DNA of 64,000 nt, taken from assembly GCA_963701855.1 (NCBI GenBank), contig CAVPBK010000013.1, positions 1 through 64,000 on the forward strand, read 5' to 3'. The DNA comes from Nitrospirota bacterium. GTDB taxonomy: Bacteria > Nitrospirota > Nitrospiria > Nitrospirales > Nitrospiraceae. This document shows positions 28,852-32,243 of this stretch, one piece after another. Below the pieces are notes generated by a model. That model did no database searches. It worked only from the letters and a program-made list of their open reading frames with translations, and was not told where the DNA came from. Position 1 is the stretch's first letter. Each line of letters begins with the position of its first letter. A program made the position numbers and the translations under genes.

Positions 28852-28996
28852 CCTCCATTCTCAGATCATCCAGGTCTATCCACCGCTTCATTCTCCACCG
28901 TTCTACGTTCGCTCCCCATCTGCGGATCTGTCAAGTCCAGCGGGCTAGTGCGGTAGTGGGCTATTTTGGTTTGTCCGCCTATTTGTTTTTGCAGTT

Positions 28997-29818
28997 TTAT
29001 TTCATTCGATTATAGGGGTAATAAAGGTAGACGCCGATGTCGGATGGATTAGAGGTTCCAGGGAAATAGGCCCCAACTTCAGTAATTCGTTCTTTATCGG
29101 TGAGTACATCATGATAGGTAGCGCATCCGTGAATGAACAGTTTGGCGGTCCTGTTTCTGACCATCTGCTCTTGTGCTTCAGACATGCCGTATGTCCCACT
29201 GTGGAGTTTAGTGCCCCAAACTTTATCAGGCGGAAGGATACCTACATGAACAGTCGCCTTTGGGCATTTGTAAGGGTCAAATTTAGGAATGTTAGTGAGA
29301 TCATATGGCCCGCTTGGATTTATGAAGGAAAACTCCCAGCCAGATTCAGCCTTGAGGGCTGGAGTCTTACCGATATTTTTAAAACCAATTTCGAAAGTGA
29401 TTTGGTCTTTGTCAATACTTGTAATTCCGAAACCGTCCACTGCAATCCATGCCGCAGTGGAGGCTGCAGCAGCATCAGCAGAGAGTTTAGTAGCCTCGGT
29501 GGTCTGTTTGATCTCACTCCAAATATACCAATTAATCATTACAGTAATGCCAACAAAAAAGGCGGTCGCCACTTCAAGACGGAATTTCCATTTATCTCTG
29601 GACTCTTGCCGTTTCTGATTGGCGTTGTAACTTTCTTCTATTCTGCGTGGAAAATTAACTTCGACAGTAGATGTAAGTGGTGGGTAGATATTTGGCTGGT
29701 TGCTGGGTTTTGTATTTTTCTGTACGGAGTCAGCGGTATTTTGACATGGAGCGTCTCCTTCTAATGCCATCGTTTTATTTTTGGCCTTCTTTTTTCGTCT
29801 TTTTGAATGCCTTGACAT
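28997..29818 (-). CDS. Transposon passenger: single-pass membrane protein of unknown function
   Basis: 273 aa; basic N-terminus, one TM helix, beta-rich C-terminal domain; starts 1 nt after the transposase stop. Confidence 0.7.
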   Translation of the reverse strand: MSRHSKRRKKKAKNKTMALEGDAPCQNTADSVQKNTKPSNQPNIYPPLTSTVEVNFPRRIEESYNANQKRQESRDKWKFRLEVATAFFVGITVMINWYIWSEIKQTTEATKLSADAAAASTAAWIAVDGFGITSIDKDQITFEIGFKNIGKTPALKAESGWEFSFINPSGPYDLTNIPKFDPYKCPKATVHVGILPPDKVWGTKLHSGTYGMSEAQEQMVRNRTAKLFIHGCATYHDVLTDKERITEVGAYFPGTSNPSDIGVYLYYPYNRMK

Positions 29819-29819
29819 A

Positions 29820-30634
29820 TTAAACGAGTTCGCCGAGTTCCCAAATGCGATCTGTAATGCCCGCTGCCATGGCTGGCGTCATACGAAGTGACCGATGAAT
29901 CAGACAGAAGTTGTAGCTCCAGAAGTAGAGCGCGACAGCAGCTTTCAGATTGGCCAACTTACGGGAGAAGGCCAAGGTGAGACGGTGAAATCTAGCAACC
30001 TTCATCCGCAAGGTCAAATTCTGCCGCTCAACATAGGACGTACAGACCTTGCTGTAATCCGGGATGCCCAACACTTCAGTAATCTCCGTTCCAGACACGC
30101 GAGGCGGGGCATAGCGGCCTGGTCCAGGATTCTGCGAGGCGTACAGCTTCGTGATTGTGGCATAGGTGGCACGATTGCCGAAGTATCTCGCAATGGCTGG
30201 ACTATATGGTCCCCACGCGTCGGTACTGACCTGGGTAGAACCTTCAATGCGTCGGCTCAGATCCTCGATGAAATGATGTGTATTGATCGAGTCCCGCTTG
30301 CCCACATGGAAGGCTGGAATGACTTTGGAGATAGGATCAAGCGCGATATATGTATACTGGTCGCCAAGCTCAGGATTGGCCTTCCGTTCCTCAGCTTTCA
30401 TCACACCGTCTTTTTTCCCAACGAACGTCCAGATTTCGTCACATTCAACAGCCTCACACCGAATGCCGCGCATGCGCTCATCCATCATTTGCTGACAGCG
30501 CGTTCCCACTTCCACCAACAGCTTCATGATGGTTTTCTTATGTACGCCGGTCATGCGGACTATAGAACGGATCGAACAGCCCTCAGTGAGAGCGGAGATA
30601 ACAGCCAACTTTTTTCTGCTTTCAGCACATTCAT
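29820..30634 (-). CDS. IS1-family DDE transposase (apparent frameshift in an A6 run near 30610-30615)
   Basis: HTH EGCSIRSIVRMTGV; ECDEIWTFVGKK, STDAW, TSYVERQNLTLR, TPAMAAG. SD AAGGAGG precedes ATG 30634, which is out of frame with the body by one base. Confidence 0.88.
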
Positions 30635-30644
30635 GGGACCTCCT

Positions 30645-30673
30645 TTGATTGGAGATCCCGGAAGGTGTATACT
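30645..30673 (+). promoter_or_regulatory. Sigma-70 promoter firing antisense to the transposase leader
   Basis: TTGATT-17 nt-TATACT. Confidence 0.65.
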
Positions 30674-30679
30674 TTGAAT

Positions 30680-30765
30680 CGCCTTCATGGGTGCGATCCG
30701 GTTCGACCTTCGCGGGACCTACCGGGTTGCGGTTGCTCGGTGCTAGTAACACCGGGCAACCATTC
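30680..30765 (+). ncRNA. Predicted ~85-nt cis-antisense RNA
   Basis: Lies between the antisense promoter and a 12-bp hairpin GGTTGCTCGGTG/CACCGGGCAACC (30731-30761) whose G-U pair forms only on the plus strand. Confidence 0.5.
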
Positions 30766-30777
30766 CTACTTACATGA

Positions 30778-30853
30778 TGGTGGCGGGGGCCAGTCTCGAA
30801 CTGGCGACAGCCGGGTTAGTAATCCGGCGTTCTATCCCCTGAACTACCCCGCC
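30778..30853 (-). tRNA. Atypical tRNA / tRNA-like gene, anticodon ACT, short variable arm, encoded CCA
   Basis: 76-nt cloverleaf: GGCGGGG TA GTTC AGGGGATA GAAC G CCGGA TTACTAA CCCGG CTGTC GCCAG TTCGAGA CTGGC CCCCGCC A CCA. Confidence 0.85.
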
Positions 30854-30901
30854 ATTCATCTTGCTCTTCTCCATTGTTTCAAATCCATCCTACTATTGTT
30901 T

Positions 30902-30955
30902 AAAATAATATATATAATTGTTGACAATAAGTCAACTGTTTGTTATATATATTTT
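30902..30955. promoter_or_regulatory. Overlapping divergent sigma-70 promoters within an AT-rich quasi-palindrome
   Basis: Plus strand TTGACA(30921)-17-TATATA; minus strand TTGACT(30935)-17-TATATT; IR GTTGAC-N5-GTCAAC flanked by ATATATATAA/TTATATATAT. Confidence 0.7.
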
Positions 30956-30985
30956 AACTATTGTTATAAAAAGGATGGTGCAACC

Positions 30986-32113
30986 ATGAAAAAGAGAGAA
31001 AAAAGCGAAAACATTCAGCACTTCATAGTCGATAATCTCATGATTAATAAGGCCAATGTATCTGAGGCGTCGTCATTTCAGATGTCTCATCTTGCTCGCC
31101 TAACGGCAGATCATTTTCAAATTTCACGGGCGGCGGTCGCAAGACACATTGCCCTATTAGTGAAAAGAAATATTCTTAGTGCCTCTGGTAACACGAAGGC
31201 ACGAATGTATGCGCTAGTTCCTTCAGTTGACGAAAGATTCAGTCTTTCAACAGTAGGGCTACAGGAGGATGTGGTTTGGCGTGAAAGAATCAGCCCTTTG
31301 TTCTCCAATGATACCCCTGAGAACATTCTCACAATCTGTAATTATGGTTTTACTGAGATGCTGAATAACGCAATTGACCATTCAGAGTCTGACACCGTGC
31401 ATATCACTGTTACGGTCGATGCAGCACAAATTTTTATTTGGATTCGTGACTTCGGAATAGGAGTTTTTAAAAAGCTAATGCGAGATCTTCATTTACATGA
31501 TGCGCGTCACGCTCTGTTAGAGCTAAGCAAGGGCAAGCTAACCACTGCTGCGGGTGGGCATACCGGACAAGGGATATTTTTTACTTCGCGCATATTTGAT
31601 GAATATATGTTTTGGGCCAATGGGTTCTCATTTTGTCGCTTTGGCAAGGATGATGATTGGTTATTTGAGCCCAAAGATCCCCAAAAGGATCCTGACGTAG
31701 GCACGCTAGTTATGATGAGAATTTCTCTAAGGGCCACACAAACAGCGGGCGAAATTATGAGCCAATATTCATCAGAATTGCATGATTATGGATTTACGAA
31801 AACCCATGTTCCATTGGTGTTGGCCAAATATGAGGGAGAACAGTTGGTTTCTCGGTCACAAGCAAAGCGATTGATGTTACGCGTGGATCAGTTCAAGGAA
31901 GTCATGTTGGATTTTACGGGTATTACTACTATTGGGCAGGCGTTCGCGGATCAAATATTTAGGGTGTTTCAAGGCGAGCATCCAAAACTATTAATCGTTC
32001 CGATTAATGAGAATGAGGAAGTAAAGAAAATGATTACTCGGGCGAAGGGAGAGACGGTTGTAGAGCTTACCCCTTCCCTTTTTGATGCCATTAAGGATGA
32101 TCCAACCACATGA
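30986..32113 (+). CDS. wHTH + HATPase (anti-sigma-like) + STAS-like (DUF4325) fusion protein
   Basis: ISRAAVARHIALLV (HTH); TEMLNNAIDHS, DFGIG, GQGIFF (N/G1/G2 boxes); VSRSQAKRL..LDFTGITTIGQAFADQIF. Confidence 0.85.
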   Translation: MKKREKSENIQHFIVDNLMINKANVSEASSFQMSHLARLTADHFQISRAAVARHIALLVKRNILSASGNTKARMYALVPSVDERFSLSTVGLQEDVVWRERISPLFSNDTPENILTICNYGFTEMLNNAIDHSESDTVHITVTVDAAQIFIWIRDFGIGVFKKLMRDLHLHDARHALLELSKGKLTTAAGGHTGQGIFFTSRIFDEYMFWANGFSFCRFGKDDDWLFEPKDPQKDPDVGTLVMMRISLRATQTAGEIMSQYSSELHDYGFTKTHVPLVLAKYEGEQLVSRSQAKRLMLRVDQFKEVMLDFTGITTIGQAFADQIFRVFQGEHPKLLIVPINENEEVKKMITRAKGETVVELTPSLFDAIKDDPTT

Positions 32114-32243
32114 GTGATTTTCAAAATAGCCCACTACCGTCTAGAGCCCGCTTCCTTGCAATCCTGTCACAGGCTCGCTACCATATTTCGTGTAGATTCT
32201 GGTCTAATACCACGGTACTTCACCACAACAAGGCTGGTTTCCT

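Follow-up and report, generated by a model that had tools for sequence, protein, structure and literature searches.

A conserved two-state leader and a predicted antisense RNA as a candidate switch of transposase translation in an IS1-family transposon

The DNA analyzed here is a stretch of 64,000 nucleotides (nt) from a Nitrospirota bacterium (assembly GCA_963701855.1, contig CAVPBK010000013.1, positions 1 to 64,000 of the forward strand), to which we refer as the window. It carries an IS1-family transposon of 3.2 kilobases (kb) at 28952-32138, and the region of interest, the 5' leader of the transposase gene, lies inside this element and is read from the minus strand. We propose, with a probability of roughly 60%, that a refolding switch in this leader, operated by an antisense RNA, controls translation of the transposase. 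Computation yields two folds of the leader, their conservation in relatives, a promoter on the opposite strand, and an antisense structure that is specific to its own strand. Production of the antisense RNA, its pairing with the leader, and a repressive outcome are inferred, the sign of the effect being read from the geometry alone.

Two competing folds of the transposase leader

In the window, the leader of the messenger RNA (mRNA) is built from the following elements.

30635 to 30659, minus strand: Shine-Dalgarno (SD) hairpin, the OFF fold, with the anti-SD arm at 30659-30651, the loop at 30650-30644 and the SD arm at 30643-30635; GGAGG at 30643-30639
30651 to 30666, minus strand: shared middle segment ACCUUCCGGGAUCUCC, both the anti-SD and the 3' strand of the long-range helix
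30706 to 30723, minus strand: upstream strand (anti-anti-SD) GG-U-AGGUCCCG-C-GAAGGU, the 5' strand of the long-range helix
30676 to 30699, minus strand: inner hairpin GGAUCGC / GCGAUUC, enclosed by the long-range helix
30730 to 30762, minus strand: hairpin 1 of the leader, which on the plus strand is the terminator-like hairpin of the antisense RNA

In the OFF fold, GGGAUCUCC (30659-30651) pairs across the loop AAUCAAA with GGAGGUCCC (30643-30635), and the AUG follows at 30634. The resulting SD hairpin of 9 base pairs (bp) has an energy of -20.4 kcal/mol in a 56-nt context and a z-score of -3.94, and none of 200 shuffled sequences folded as well. In the alternative fold, AGGUCCCGCGAAGGU (30720-30706) pairs with ACCUUCCGGGAUCU (30666-30653) over 14 bp; when GG:CC is added, the long-range helix (30723-30706 with 30666-30651) comprises 16 bp and has two bulges. 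For the leader of 153 nt, the fold of minimum free energy includes this helix and leaves the SD free (-57.7 kcal/mol, z-score -4.59, 0 of 200 shuffles as good).

The shared middle segment pairs either with the SD region or with the upstream strand, and the two folds are mutually exclusive in these models. The two states differ by about 1-6 kcal/mol. Upstream of hairpin 1, an AU-rich spacer separates the leader from a gene resembling a transfer RNA (tRNA), which is described below. When the covariance models of Rfam 15 were run against 29500-31500 at expectation (E) values up to 1, RF00005 (tRNA) was the only match, and the leader belongs to no Rfam family.

A first-pass annotation of the same DNA had described a 9-bp hairpin that buries the SD and a 14-bp alternative pairing that frees it. 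Both form where it placed them, the second as part of the longer helix, and folding of the two states, which it had named as a check, recovers both of them with a minimum that depends on the chosen ends. The observation is thereby confirmed, and it extends to about 45 related elements.

Conservation and covariation of the leader in relatives

Relatives were obtained from protein-pattern scans, which gave 29 loci from species-representative genomes and 51 loci from metagenome contigs. With a covariance model of the leader, 44 matches over its full length were obtained at E values below 1e-9. The consensus structure of the mRNA strand was calculated with RNAalifold from a MAFFT alignment of 40 leaders and consists of four elements, namely hairpin 1, the inner hairpin, the proximal long-range helix, and the SD hairpin. 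In this consensus, 96.2% of the cells are paired, compared to 38-47% with slid partners, and both sides have changed in 12 of 27 pairs. The covariation score was reached by 0 of 500 shuffles; since the sequences are related and kinship was uncontrolled, this and the other shuffle tests overstate significance, and their figures are not probabilities.

Both folds are kept in all 35 distinct sequence triples, with compensatory changes. Over these triples, the duplex energies range from -12.8 to -27.6 kcal/mol for the long-range helix and from -11.8 to -20.5 kcal/mol for the SD hairpin. Strands fit their own partners better than swapped ones: the means are -22.97 versus -20.88 kcal/mol for the long-range helix and -16.86 versus -15.52 kcal/mol for the SD hairpin, and in neither case was any of 5000 permutations as good. 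The same three-strand design, made of different sequences, is found in distant relatives that have no tRNA-like gene (L016, L025, L055, L057, and L062). In L055, for example, the three strands read GCGAAGGCC / GGCCUUCGC / GGCAAGGCC.

It is in its distal part that the long-range helix contends with the SD hairpin for the GGG of the middle segment. Some sequences have a bulged C there and others lack it, which gives two registers, and column counts therefore understate this part. The covariance-model alignment was tried for counting the distal pairs and given up, as it failed to bring the two registers together; per-sequence duplexes were used instead. Since the registers are not aligned in one frame, support for the distal helix rests on these duplexes.

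A predicted promoter on the opposite strand

Opposite the leader, the following promoter-like site was found.

30645 to 30673, plus strand: antisense promoter TTGATT-17-TATACT, with 9 of 12 consensus matches, its -35 element in the loop of the SD hairpin and its -10 element in the linker before the middle segment

We scored every pair of -35 and -10 elements on both strands of 49 distinct leaders on a 12-point consensus scale. In 45 of the 49 (all but L024, L071, L012, and L073), the best antisense site has the last base of its -10 element between -34 and -40 relative to the start codon, and the site scores at least 8/12 in 40 of these 45. A perfect 12/12 promoter, TTGACA-16-TATAAT, is present in L034, L043, L046, and L048. 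The -10 element reads TATACT, TATAAT, TACAAT, TACACT, TAAAAT, or TATAGT. It thus varies at tolerant positions and keeps T1, A2, and T6, which is the signature of a promoter and not of an RNA helix. In the mRNA, it falls in a single-stranded linker.

The best sites on the mRNA strand score 3-9/12. One candidate there, ATTACA-17-nAGTAT over the palindromic GTATAC, was rejected: it scores 3-9/12, falls below the antisense site in almost every leader, and has a -35 element that is explained by the antisense stem. The antisense promoter belongs to the element itself and faces the 5' part of the transposase transcript.

The predicted antisense RNA and the strand test

The RNA predicted to start from this promoter is the following.

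30680 to 30775, plus strand: predicted cis-antisense RNA of about 90 nt (ends predicted), with its start about 7 nt past the -10 element, called from fold, covariation, and strand bias

The predicted fold of this RNA consists of two stem-loops (-45 kcal/mol, z-score -4.86). The antisense stem-loop (30691-30730) has a 10-bp stem, formed by 30691-30702 with 30721-30730, and displays in its apical part ACCUUCGCGGGACCU, the complement of the upstream strand. The terminator-like hairpin (30731-30761) has 12 bp and is followed by AUUCCUACUU. A start near 30680 leaves out the 5' half of the mirrored inner hairpin, and the antisense RNA therefore folds into these two stem-loops instead. RNAalifold returned the same two stem-loops from the antisense alignment, with 99.5% of the cells paired, both-sided changes in 8 of 19 pairs, and a score that 0 of 500 shuffles reached.

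Considering that G.U pairs on one strand are A.C mismatches on the other, the strand that is under selection can be read from the number of paired cells. For the four structures, the counts were as follows.

Antisense stem-loop: antisense strand, 278 of 279 cells paired (60 G.U); mRNA strand, 218 of 279
Terminator hairpin: antisense strand, 476 of 479 cells paired (37 G.U); mRNA strand, 441 of 479
SD hairpin: antisense strand, 223 of 280 cells paired; mRNA strand, 271 of 280 (48 G.U)
Inner hairpin: antisense strand, 231 of 266 cells paired; mRNA strand, 255 of 266

This bias indicates that each strand carries structure selected on that strand. The strand test is the strongest available evidence for a real antisense RNA. 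The tail after hairpin 1 also differs between the strands, with a mean of 3.8 U in 8 positions on the antisense strand versus 0.5 on the mRNA strand.

Complementarity of the predicted antisense RNA extends over hairpin 1, over the upstream strand, and over the inner hairpin, and stops short of both the middle segment and the SD. The -10 element ends at 30673 and transcription heads away from the SD (30643-30639), so that the overlap with SD and start codon by which start-site masking is recognized is absent.

The first-pass annotation had placed TTGATT-17-TATACT on the opposite strand and had it drive an RNA of about 85 nt, ending in a 12-bp hairpin and covering the upstream segment without overlapping the SD. 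The promoter is there, with its position kept in the 45 leaders. The predicted RNA agrees in its 12-bp hairpin, is slightly longer, and spans 30680 to about 30775, upstream strand included. Covariation in homologues, another check that it had named, exceeds all 500 shuffles and all slid controls for the structures of both strands. Each element of its model, in which the antisense RNA would lock the OFF fold, is thus supported by the relatives; the tRNA-like gene, the ends of the transposon, and the frameshift of this copy were not part of what it described.

Proposed mechanism and alternatives

We propose that the switch would work as follows. The transposase mRNA would be transcribed through the tRNA-like gene. 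In the ON state, the upstream strand would pair with the middle segment, enclose the inner hairpin, and leave the SD free, and in the OFF state, the middle segment and the SD region would close the 9-bp hairpin. A constitutive sigma-70-type promoter on the opposite strand would make the structured RNA of about 90 nt, which, in the apical part of its stem-loop, would expose a sequence complementary to the upstream strand. Pairing with the antisense RNA would remove the upstream strand, which is the only competitor of the SD hairpin; the middle segment would then close that hairpin, and translation of the transposase would be blocked. In this way, transposition would be limited, and repression would grow with the copy number of the element. 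When the part of the leader covered by the antisense RNA was masked in folding calculations, all 39 leaders examined had a lower probability of an unpaired SD core (GGAGG), the median dropping from 0.14 to 0.0007.

Several points, in addition to the uncontrolled kinship of the sequences, weigh against this proposal. In equilibrium folding without the antisense RNA, the SD is mostly paired already (mean unpaired probability 0.15, and 0.03 when the covered part is masked). Masking of hairpin 1 alone lowers SD accessibility from 0.15 to 0.06, which makes the measure context-sensitive. According to these models, the antisense RNA may add little at equilibrium. When the leader is given other ends, the SD hairpin, accompanied by the proximal GAAGG:CCUUC pairs, becomes the fold of lowest energy. 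Two distal pairs have 18-19 unpaired cells of 44 in the covariance-model alignment, and the distant relatives have a poor antisense -35 element, with totals of 6-9/12. The terminator-like hairpin is followed by at least 4 U in 8 positions in 23 of 39 sequences, and the tail is weak in the other 16 of 39; judged by its sequence, the antisense terminator is plausible and not uniformly strong. A look-up of RNA sequencing runs for 29800-31000 found none, and three soil metatranscriptome contig sets, compared with 30400-31000 at 80% likeness, gave no cover. Finally, an excerpt of PMC8450116 describes that in ISPpu9 the antisense RNA Asr9, directed to the 5' untranslated region (UTR) of the transposase, activates translation. 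With regard to the equilibrium values, the open state may be a kinetic one, formed co-transcriptionally, transient, and forestalled by the antisense RNA.

The near-equal energies of the folds, the dependence of the minimum on the chosen ends, and an SD that is predicted to be mostly closed without any antisense RNA would also fit a bistable leader that is real but operated by other means. The order of co-transcriptional folding, processing of the tRNA-like gene that sets the 5' end, temperature, or a protein (transposase, Hfq) could play this part, and for IS200, the available part of PMC4513863 describes an SD-sequestering stem that is independent of the antisense RNA. The opposite-strand promoter would then mainly collide with the convergent tRNA promoter, which it faces at a distance of about 230 nt, or feed the divergent passenger gene to which it points and which is present in 15 loci. 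However, interference alone needs no structured transcript, yet two antisense stem-loops are kept via G.U pairs that are A.C on the mRNA strand. Feeding of the passenger, on the other hand, fits poorly with the loci in which the promoter is strongest (the four with 12/12, L034, L043, L046, and L048), as no passenger homologue was found in the 96-1286 nt of upstream DNA available for them. The U-rich tail that follows the terminator-like hairpin in the 23 sequences also argues against operation without an antisense RNA, and we consider this alternative unlikely.

An antisense RNA that is made could also act without refolding of the leader. Perfect complementarity over about 90 nt is, from what is generally known of cis-antisense RNAs, a substrate of RNase III, which could cut the duplex of about 90 bp and destabilize the mRNA. 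Cleavage only would make it hard to explain why the upstream strand is kept as an SD mimic with three-way co-variation. Alternatively, the antisense RNA could activate in the manner of Asr9, the loss of which lowers tnp translation in ISPpu9 according to the same excerpt (PMC8450116). However, neither the anti-SD nor the SD lies within reach of the antisense RNA, and activation by directly opening the SD hairpin through pairing is therefore geometrically excluded. Action without refolding thus appears improbable, and antisense-operated refolding remains the reading that we favor.

The tRNA-like gene upstream of the leader

Immediately upstream of the leader lies the following gene.

30778 to 30853, minus strand: tRNA-like gene of 76 nt; ARAGORN class I cloverleaf with anticodon ACU, encoded CCA, and an A.C mismatch at 31:39; Rfam tRNA score 57.1 bits

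A tRNA-like gene called by ARAGORN is found just upstream of the leader, ending a few nt before it, in 41 of the 44 leader matches. Among the remaining ones, L069 and L081a have degenerate tRNA remnants and L018 has none. Across the relatives, the anticodon is ACU, GCU, or an 8-base loop containing GCU; the stems of the cloverleaf covary, and R34-C35-U36-A37 of the anticodon loop is conserved. The variable region is 5 nt long and the long class II arm of bacterial tRNA-Ser is absent, unlike in the host tRNA-Ser(GCU) (92 nt, class II). The identity as tRNA-Ser, which is the ARAGORN label, does not fit this class I body without a long variable arm. The D arm GGAUAGA and A73 resemble the five tRNA-Arg genes of the host, and we take A20, C35, U36, and A73 to be Arg identity marks.

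Two further roles of the tRNA-like gene were rejected. Recoding of AGY codons of the transposase as Arg is contradicted by conserved Ser columns (21, 24, 204, and 228), at which AGY alternates with TCN. By eye, the sequence of the window would allow the anticodon loop to kiss the loop of hairpin 1 or that of the antisense RNA, which the sequences of L002 and L006 do not.

Most likely, the tRNA-like gene supplies a promoter and a processed, defined 5' end of the leader. A more far-reaching and doubtful possibility is that it is an integral cis-acting control part. In this case, RNase P and 3' processing would give one leader 5' end from any transcript, be it begun at the internal promoter or outside the element, the switch would then fold correctly, and a host tRNA-binding factor would read the anticodon loop. 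If this were true, transposase output would be tied to the state of the cellular machinery that processes or charges tRNAs, making this the first DDE transposase under tRNA-dependent control. With an anticodon for Ser codons on a body that is not that of a tRNA-Ser, this conserved gene may be the more intriguing part of the transcription unit that it shares with the leader.

A different kind of tRNA-like gene was seen in three loci that have none next to the leader. At L025:912-1006, L062:909-1000, and L016:928-1014, about 500 nt upstream of the transposase start, ARAGORN finds tRNAs of 87-95 nt with the anticodon UUA (ochre-suppressor type); those of L025 and L062 have a class-II, Ser-like body.

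The transposase gene and its frameshift

Two features describe the gene downstream of the leader.

29820 to 30634, minus strand: IS1-family transposase gene, 815 nt, frameshifted; PF03400 with 29.5 bits at a cut-off of 24.1
30610 to 30615, minus strand: A6 run, one base short; the relatives shown read AAAAGAAG, and L045 reads AAAAAAAG

The relative P0003 matches NCBIfam NF033558 with 71.8 bits, which is under the equivalog cut-off of 100, and judging from these profile scores the transposase is a divergent member of the IS1 family. Its homologues are 271-272 amino acids (aa) long and begin with MNVLKAEKKLAVIS. In the window, the frame of the ATG at 30634 has 24 codons before its stop, and it is the main frame that extends to 29820; the frameshift is 1 nt and lies after codon 8. 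A full-length, intact transposase is present in 35 of 35 full-length relatives among the fetched loci, and the A6-run shift occurs in none of them. The shift therefore appears to be a mutation or an assembly error and not a trait of the family.

The copy in the window, lacking one base, could be a case of decay, of a homopolymer error in the assembly, or of a site that requires slippage. Judging from the sequence, MNVLKAEKKLAV, the normal N-terminus, would be regained if tRNA-Lys slipped by -1 or if the transcript carried one additional A. The organization in two open reading frames (ORFs), insA/insB', with programmed -1 frameshifting was not found, and the relatives have a single ORF of 271-272 aa.

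Boundaries and distribution of the transposon

The ends of the element are marked by inverted repeats.

28952 to 28968, plus strand: left terminal inverted repeat GGTAGTGGGCTATTTTG; an exact 16-mer is inverted at both ends, and the same repeat flanks relatives
32122 to 32138, minus strand: right terminal inverted repeat, 17 bp, identical to the left end

These ends were located via a 16-mer seen 3' of the stop codon in two relatives, which recurs in inverted orientation at 28952-28967 and 32123-32138. A search for inverted repeats near the gene (29700-31000) gave weak chance pairs only, the true ends being farther out. Exact direct repeats of 8-10 bp (mostly 9) lie outside the inverted repeat in L004, L006, L008, L009, L012, L015, L031, L032, L035, and L039. 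The two 9-mers that flank the element in the window are identical at 7 of 9 positions. Terminal inverted repeats and target duplications of 8-9 bp, as known from the IS1 family, are thus both present, the duplications being exact in the relatives. No second copy of the element was found in the same genome, in which it is single-copy.

The flanks of the insertions have a pattern of their own. GTCAA occurs 21-23 nt outside the inverted repeat in 13 of 36 distinct flanks, often on both sides, and its expected frequency is about 4% anywhere within 31 positions. This sequence pattern suggests a palindromic preferred target.

The genome loci span Nitrospirota, Nitrospinota, Smithellaceae, Acidobacteriota, Methylomirabilales, and others. 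In a survey of 151 sampled genomes of the phylum, with strict filters and 21 candidates scored per genome, the covariance model of the leader matched one genome, that of the window. The element is rare and patchy, as expected of a mobile element. Almost all relatives have the tRNA-like gene first, followed by the hairpin, the leader, and the transposase gene.

Two loci depart from the usual arrangement. The tRNA-like gene and leader of L045 (38-263) lie about 1.07 kb away from its transposase gene (1335-2148). L081 has two tandem copies of the leader (325-467 and 713-853), the first of which follows a truncated tRNA-like remnant.

Persistence of the tRNA-like gene and leader beside the transposase, down to 53-61% protein identity and in several phyla, might also be expected if the conserved RNAs (tRNA-like gene, leader, and opposite-strand RNA) served as a scaffold or guide for transposition itself, and the marked target preference, with GTCAA at -21 to -23 of the 13 flanks, could be taken in the same sense. 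However, SD sequestration and antisense structure explain all of the conserved pairings, and by eye no variable loop matches flanks or inverted repeats. IS1-family DDE transposases are not known to require RNA. We regard a role in transposition itself as very improbable, and control of translation by the switch remains our preferred explanation.

Upstream promoter and passenger genes

The remaining features of the element are the following.

30907 to 30935, minus strand: promoter-like site TTGACT-17-TATATT, upstream of the tRNA-like gene and overlapped by the palindrome GTTGACTTATTGTCAAC
30986 to 32113, plus strand: divergent passenger gene, with a winged-helix N-terminus, HATPase_c_2 (kinase-like), and STAS-like DUF4325
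28997 to 29818, minus strand: passenger ORF of 273 aa with a Lys-rich N-terminus, starting 1 nt after the transposase stop codon

No terminator-like site was found between TTGACT-17-TATATT and the transposase start. The palindrome (30920-30936) overlaps the -35 element, lies between the tRNA-like gene and the divergent passenger gene, and shares the GTCAAC motif with the target flanks; it could serve as an operator.

Homologues of the divergent passenger occupy the same position in 15 fetched loci with 43-75% identity, two weaker partial matches apart. The 273-aa ORF had no match in Pfam, NCBIfam, or PADLOC; L006 has a 58%-identical homologue in the same place. PADLOC matched neither of the two passenger proteins.

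Comparison with known systems

Transposases are kept at very low levels, and an RNA mechanism has been worked out for few elements (IS10, IS200, IS30, and ISPpu9). The pairing of IS10 RNA-OUT and of IS200 art200 covers the start region of the transposase. Like these RNAs, the one predicted here is a small RNA that the element itself encodes, opposite the transposase transcript's 5' end, and that would limit translation. In the accessible part of PMC5006887, RNA-OUT of IS10/Tn10 is described as a cis-antisense repressor of transposase translation. For IS200, the excerpt of PMC4513863 states that art200 blocks ribosome binding by pairing with the transposase mRNA and that a separate 5'UTR stem sequesters the SD. 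Stem and antisense RNA are thus independent in IS200, whereas the RNA predicted here could act only through the competing helix. In contrast to both systems, it would start at least 37 nt upstream of the SD. The transposase families differ as well, with IS10 belonging to IS4, IS200 to IS200/IS605, and the present element to IS1.

ISPpu9, of the IS110 family, offers a case with the opposite sign: in the part of PMC8450116 referred to above, Asr9 appears to open a structure and raise translation, and a second small RNA counteracts it. Compared with Asr9/Ssr9, the geometry of the present leader predicts repression, and no second RNA was seen.

A full-text literature search found no antisense RNA and no tRNA-like gene described in an IS1-family element. 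IS1 of Escherichia coli makes 9-bp target duplications, has inverted repeats starting with GGT, and is controlled via InsA and a -1 frameshift that makes InsAB'. The present element has the same Pfam DDE transposase family, 9-bp duplications, and repeats that start with GGT. It differs in that its relatives have one uninterrupted ORF of 271-272 aa, together with passengers, a tRNA-like gene, and the RNA switch. Presumably, it falls into the single-ORF IS1 subgroup that we take to be called ISMhu11, a name absent from the literature searched.

The closest likeness is to the counter-transcript RNAs (ctRNAs) of plasmids. RNAI of pSK41 and the ctRNA of repABC act by induced refolding of the leader. 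In IncI1 and IncB/O plasmids, an antisense RNA prevents a pseudoknot that RepZ translation requires, according to the available part of PMC8053102. In all of these systems, as predicted here, the leader is bound upstream of the ribosome-binding site, and a long-range interaction is prevented or an SD-hiding fold is induced. The leader of the transposon differs in that its activating helix of 16 bp is not a pseudoknot, in that it has no leader peptide, in that a transposase is controlled, and in that a tRNA-like gene lies upstream. Two properties of the ctRNA class are found in it: exclusive leader folds, one of which hides the SD, and a stem-loop antisense RNA, here a predicted one, that is complementary to the leader upstream of the SD and ends in a terminator, here with a moderate U-tract.

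The three-strand logic of SD, anti-SD, and anti-anti-SD, with an antisense RNA that stays clear of the ribosome-binding site, has its precedent in plasmid copy-number control; within the reach of our literature search, no insertion sequence, of the IS1 family or otherwise, has been described as using it. Since the element is rare and patchy, the wider biological impact would be modest. Strand-specific covariation on both strands nevertheless makes a case, from sequence, for two overlapping functional RNAs. By its design, the module works like a counter-transcript refolding switch and stands outside the start-site-masking class to which RNA-OUT and art200 belong.

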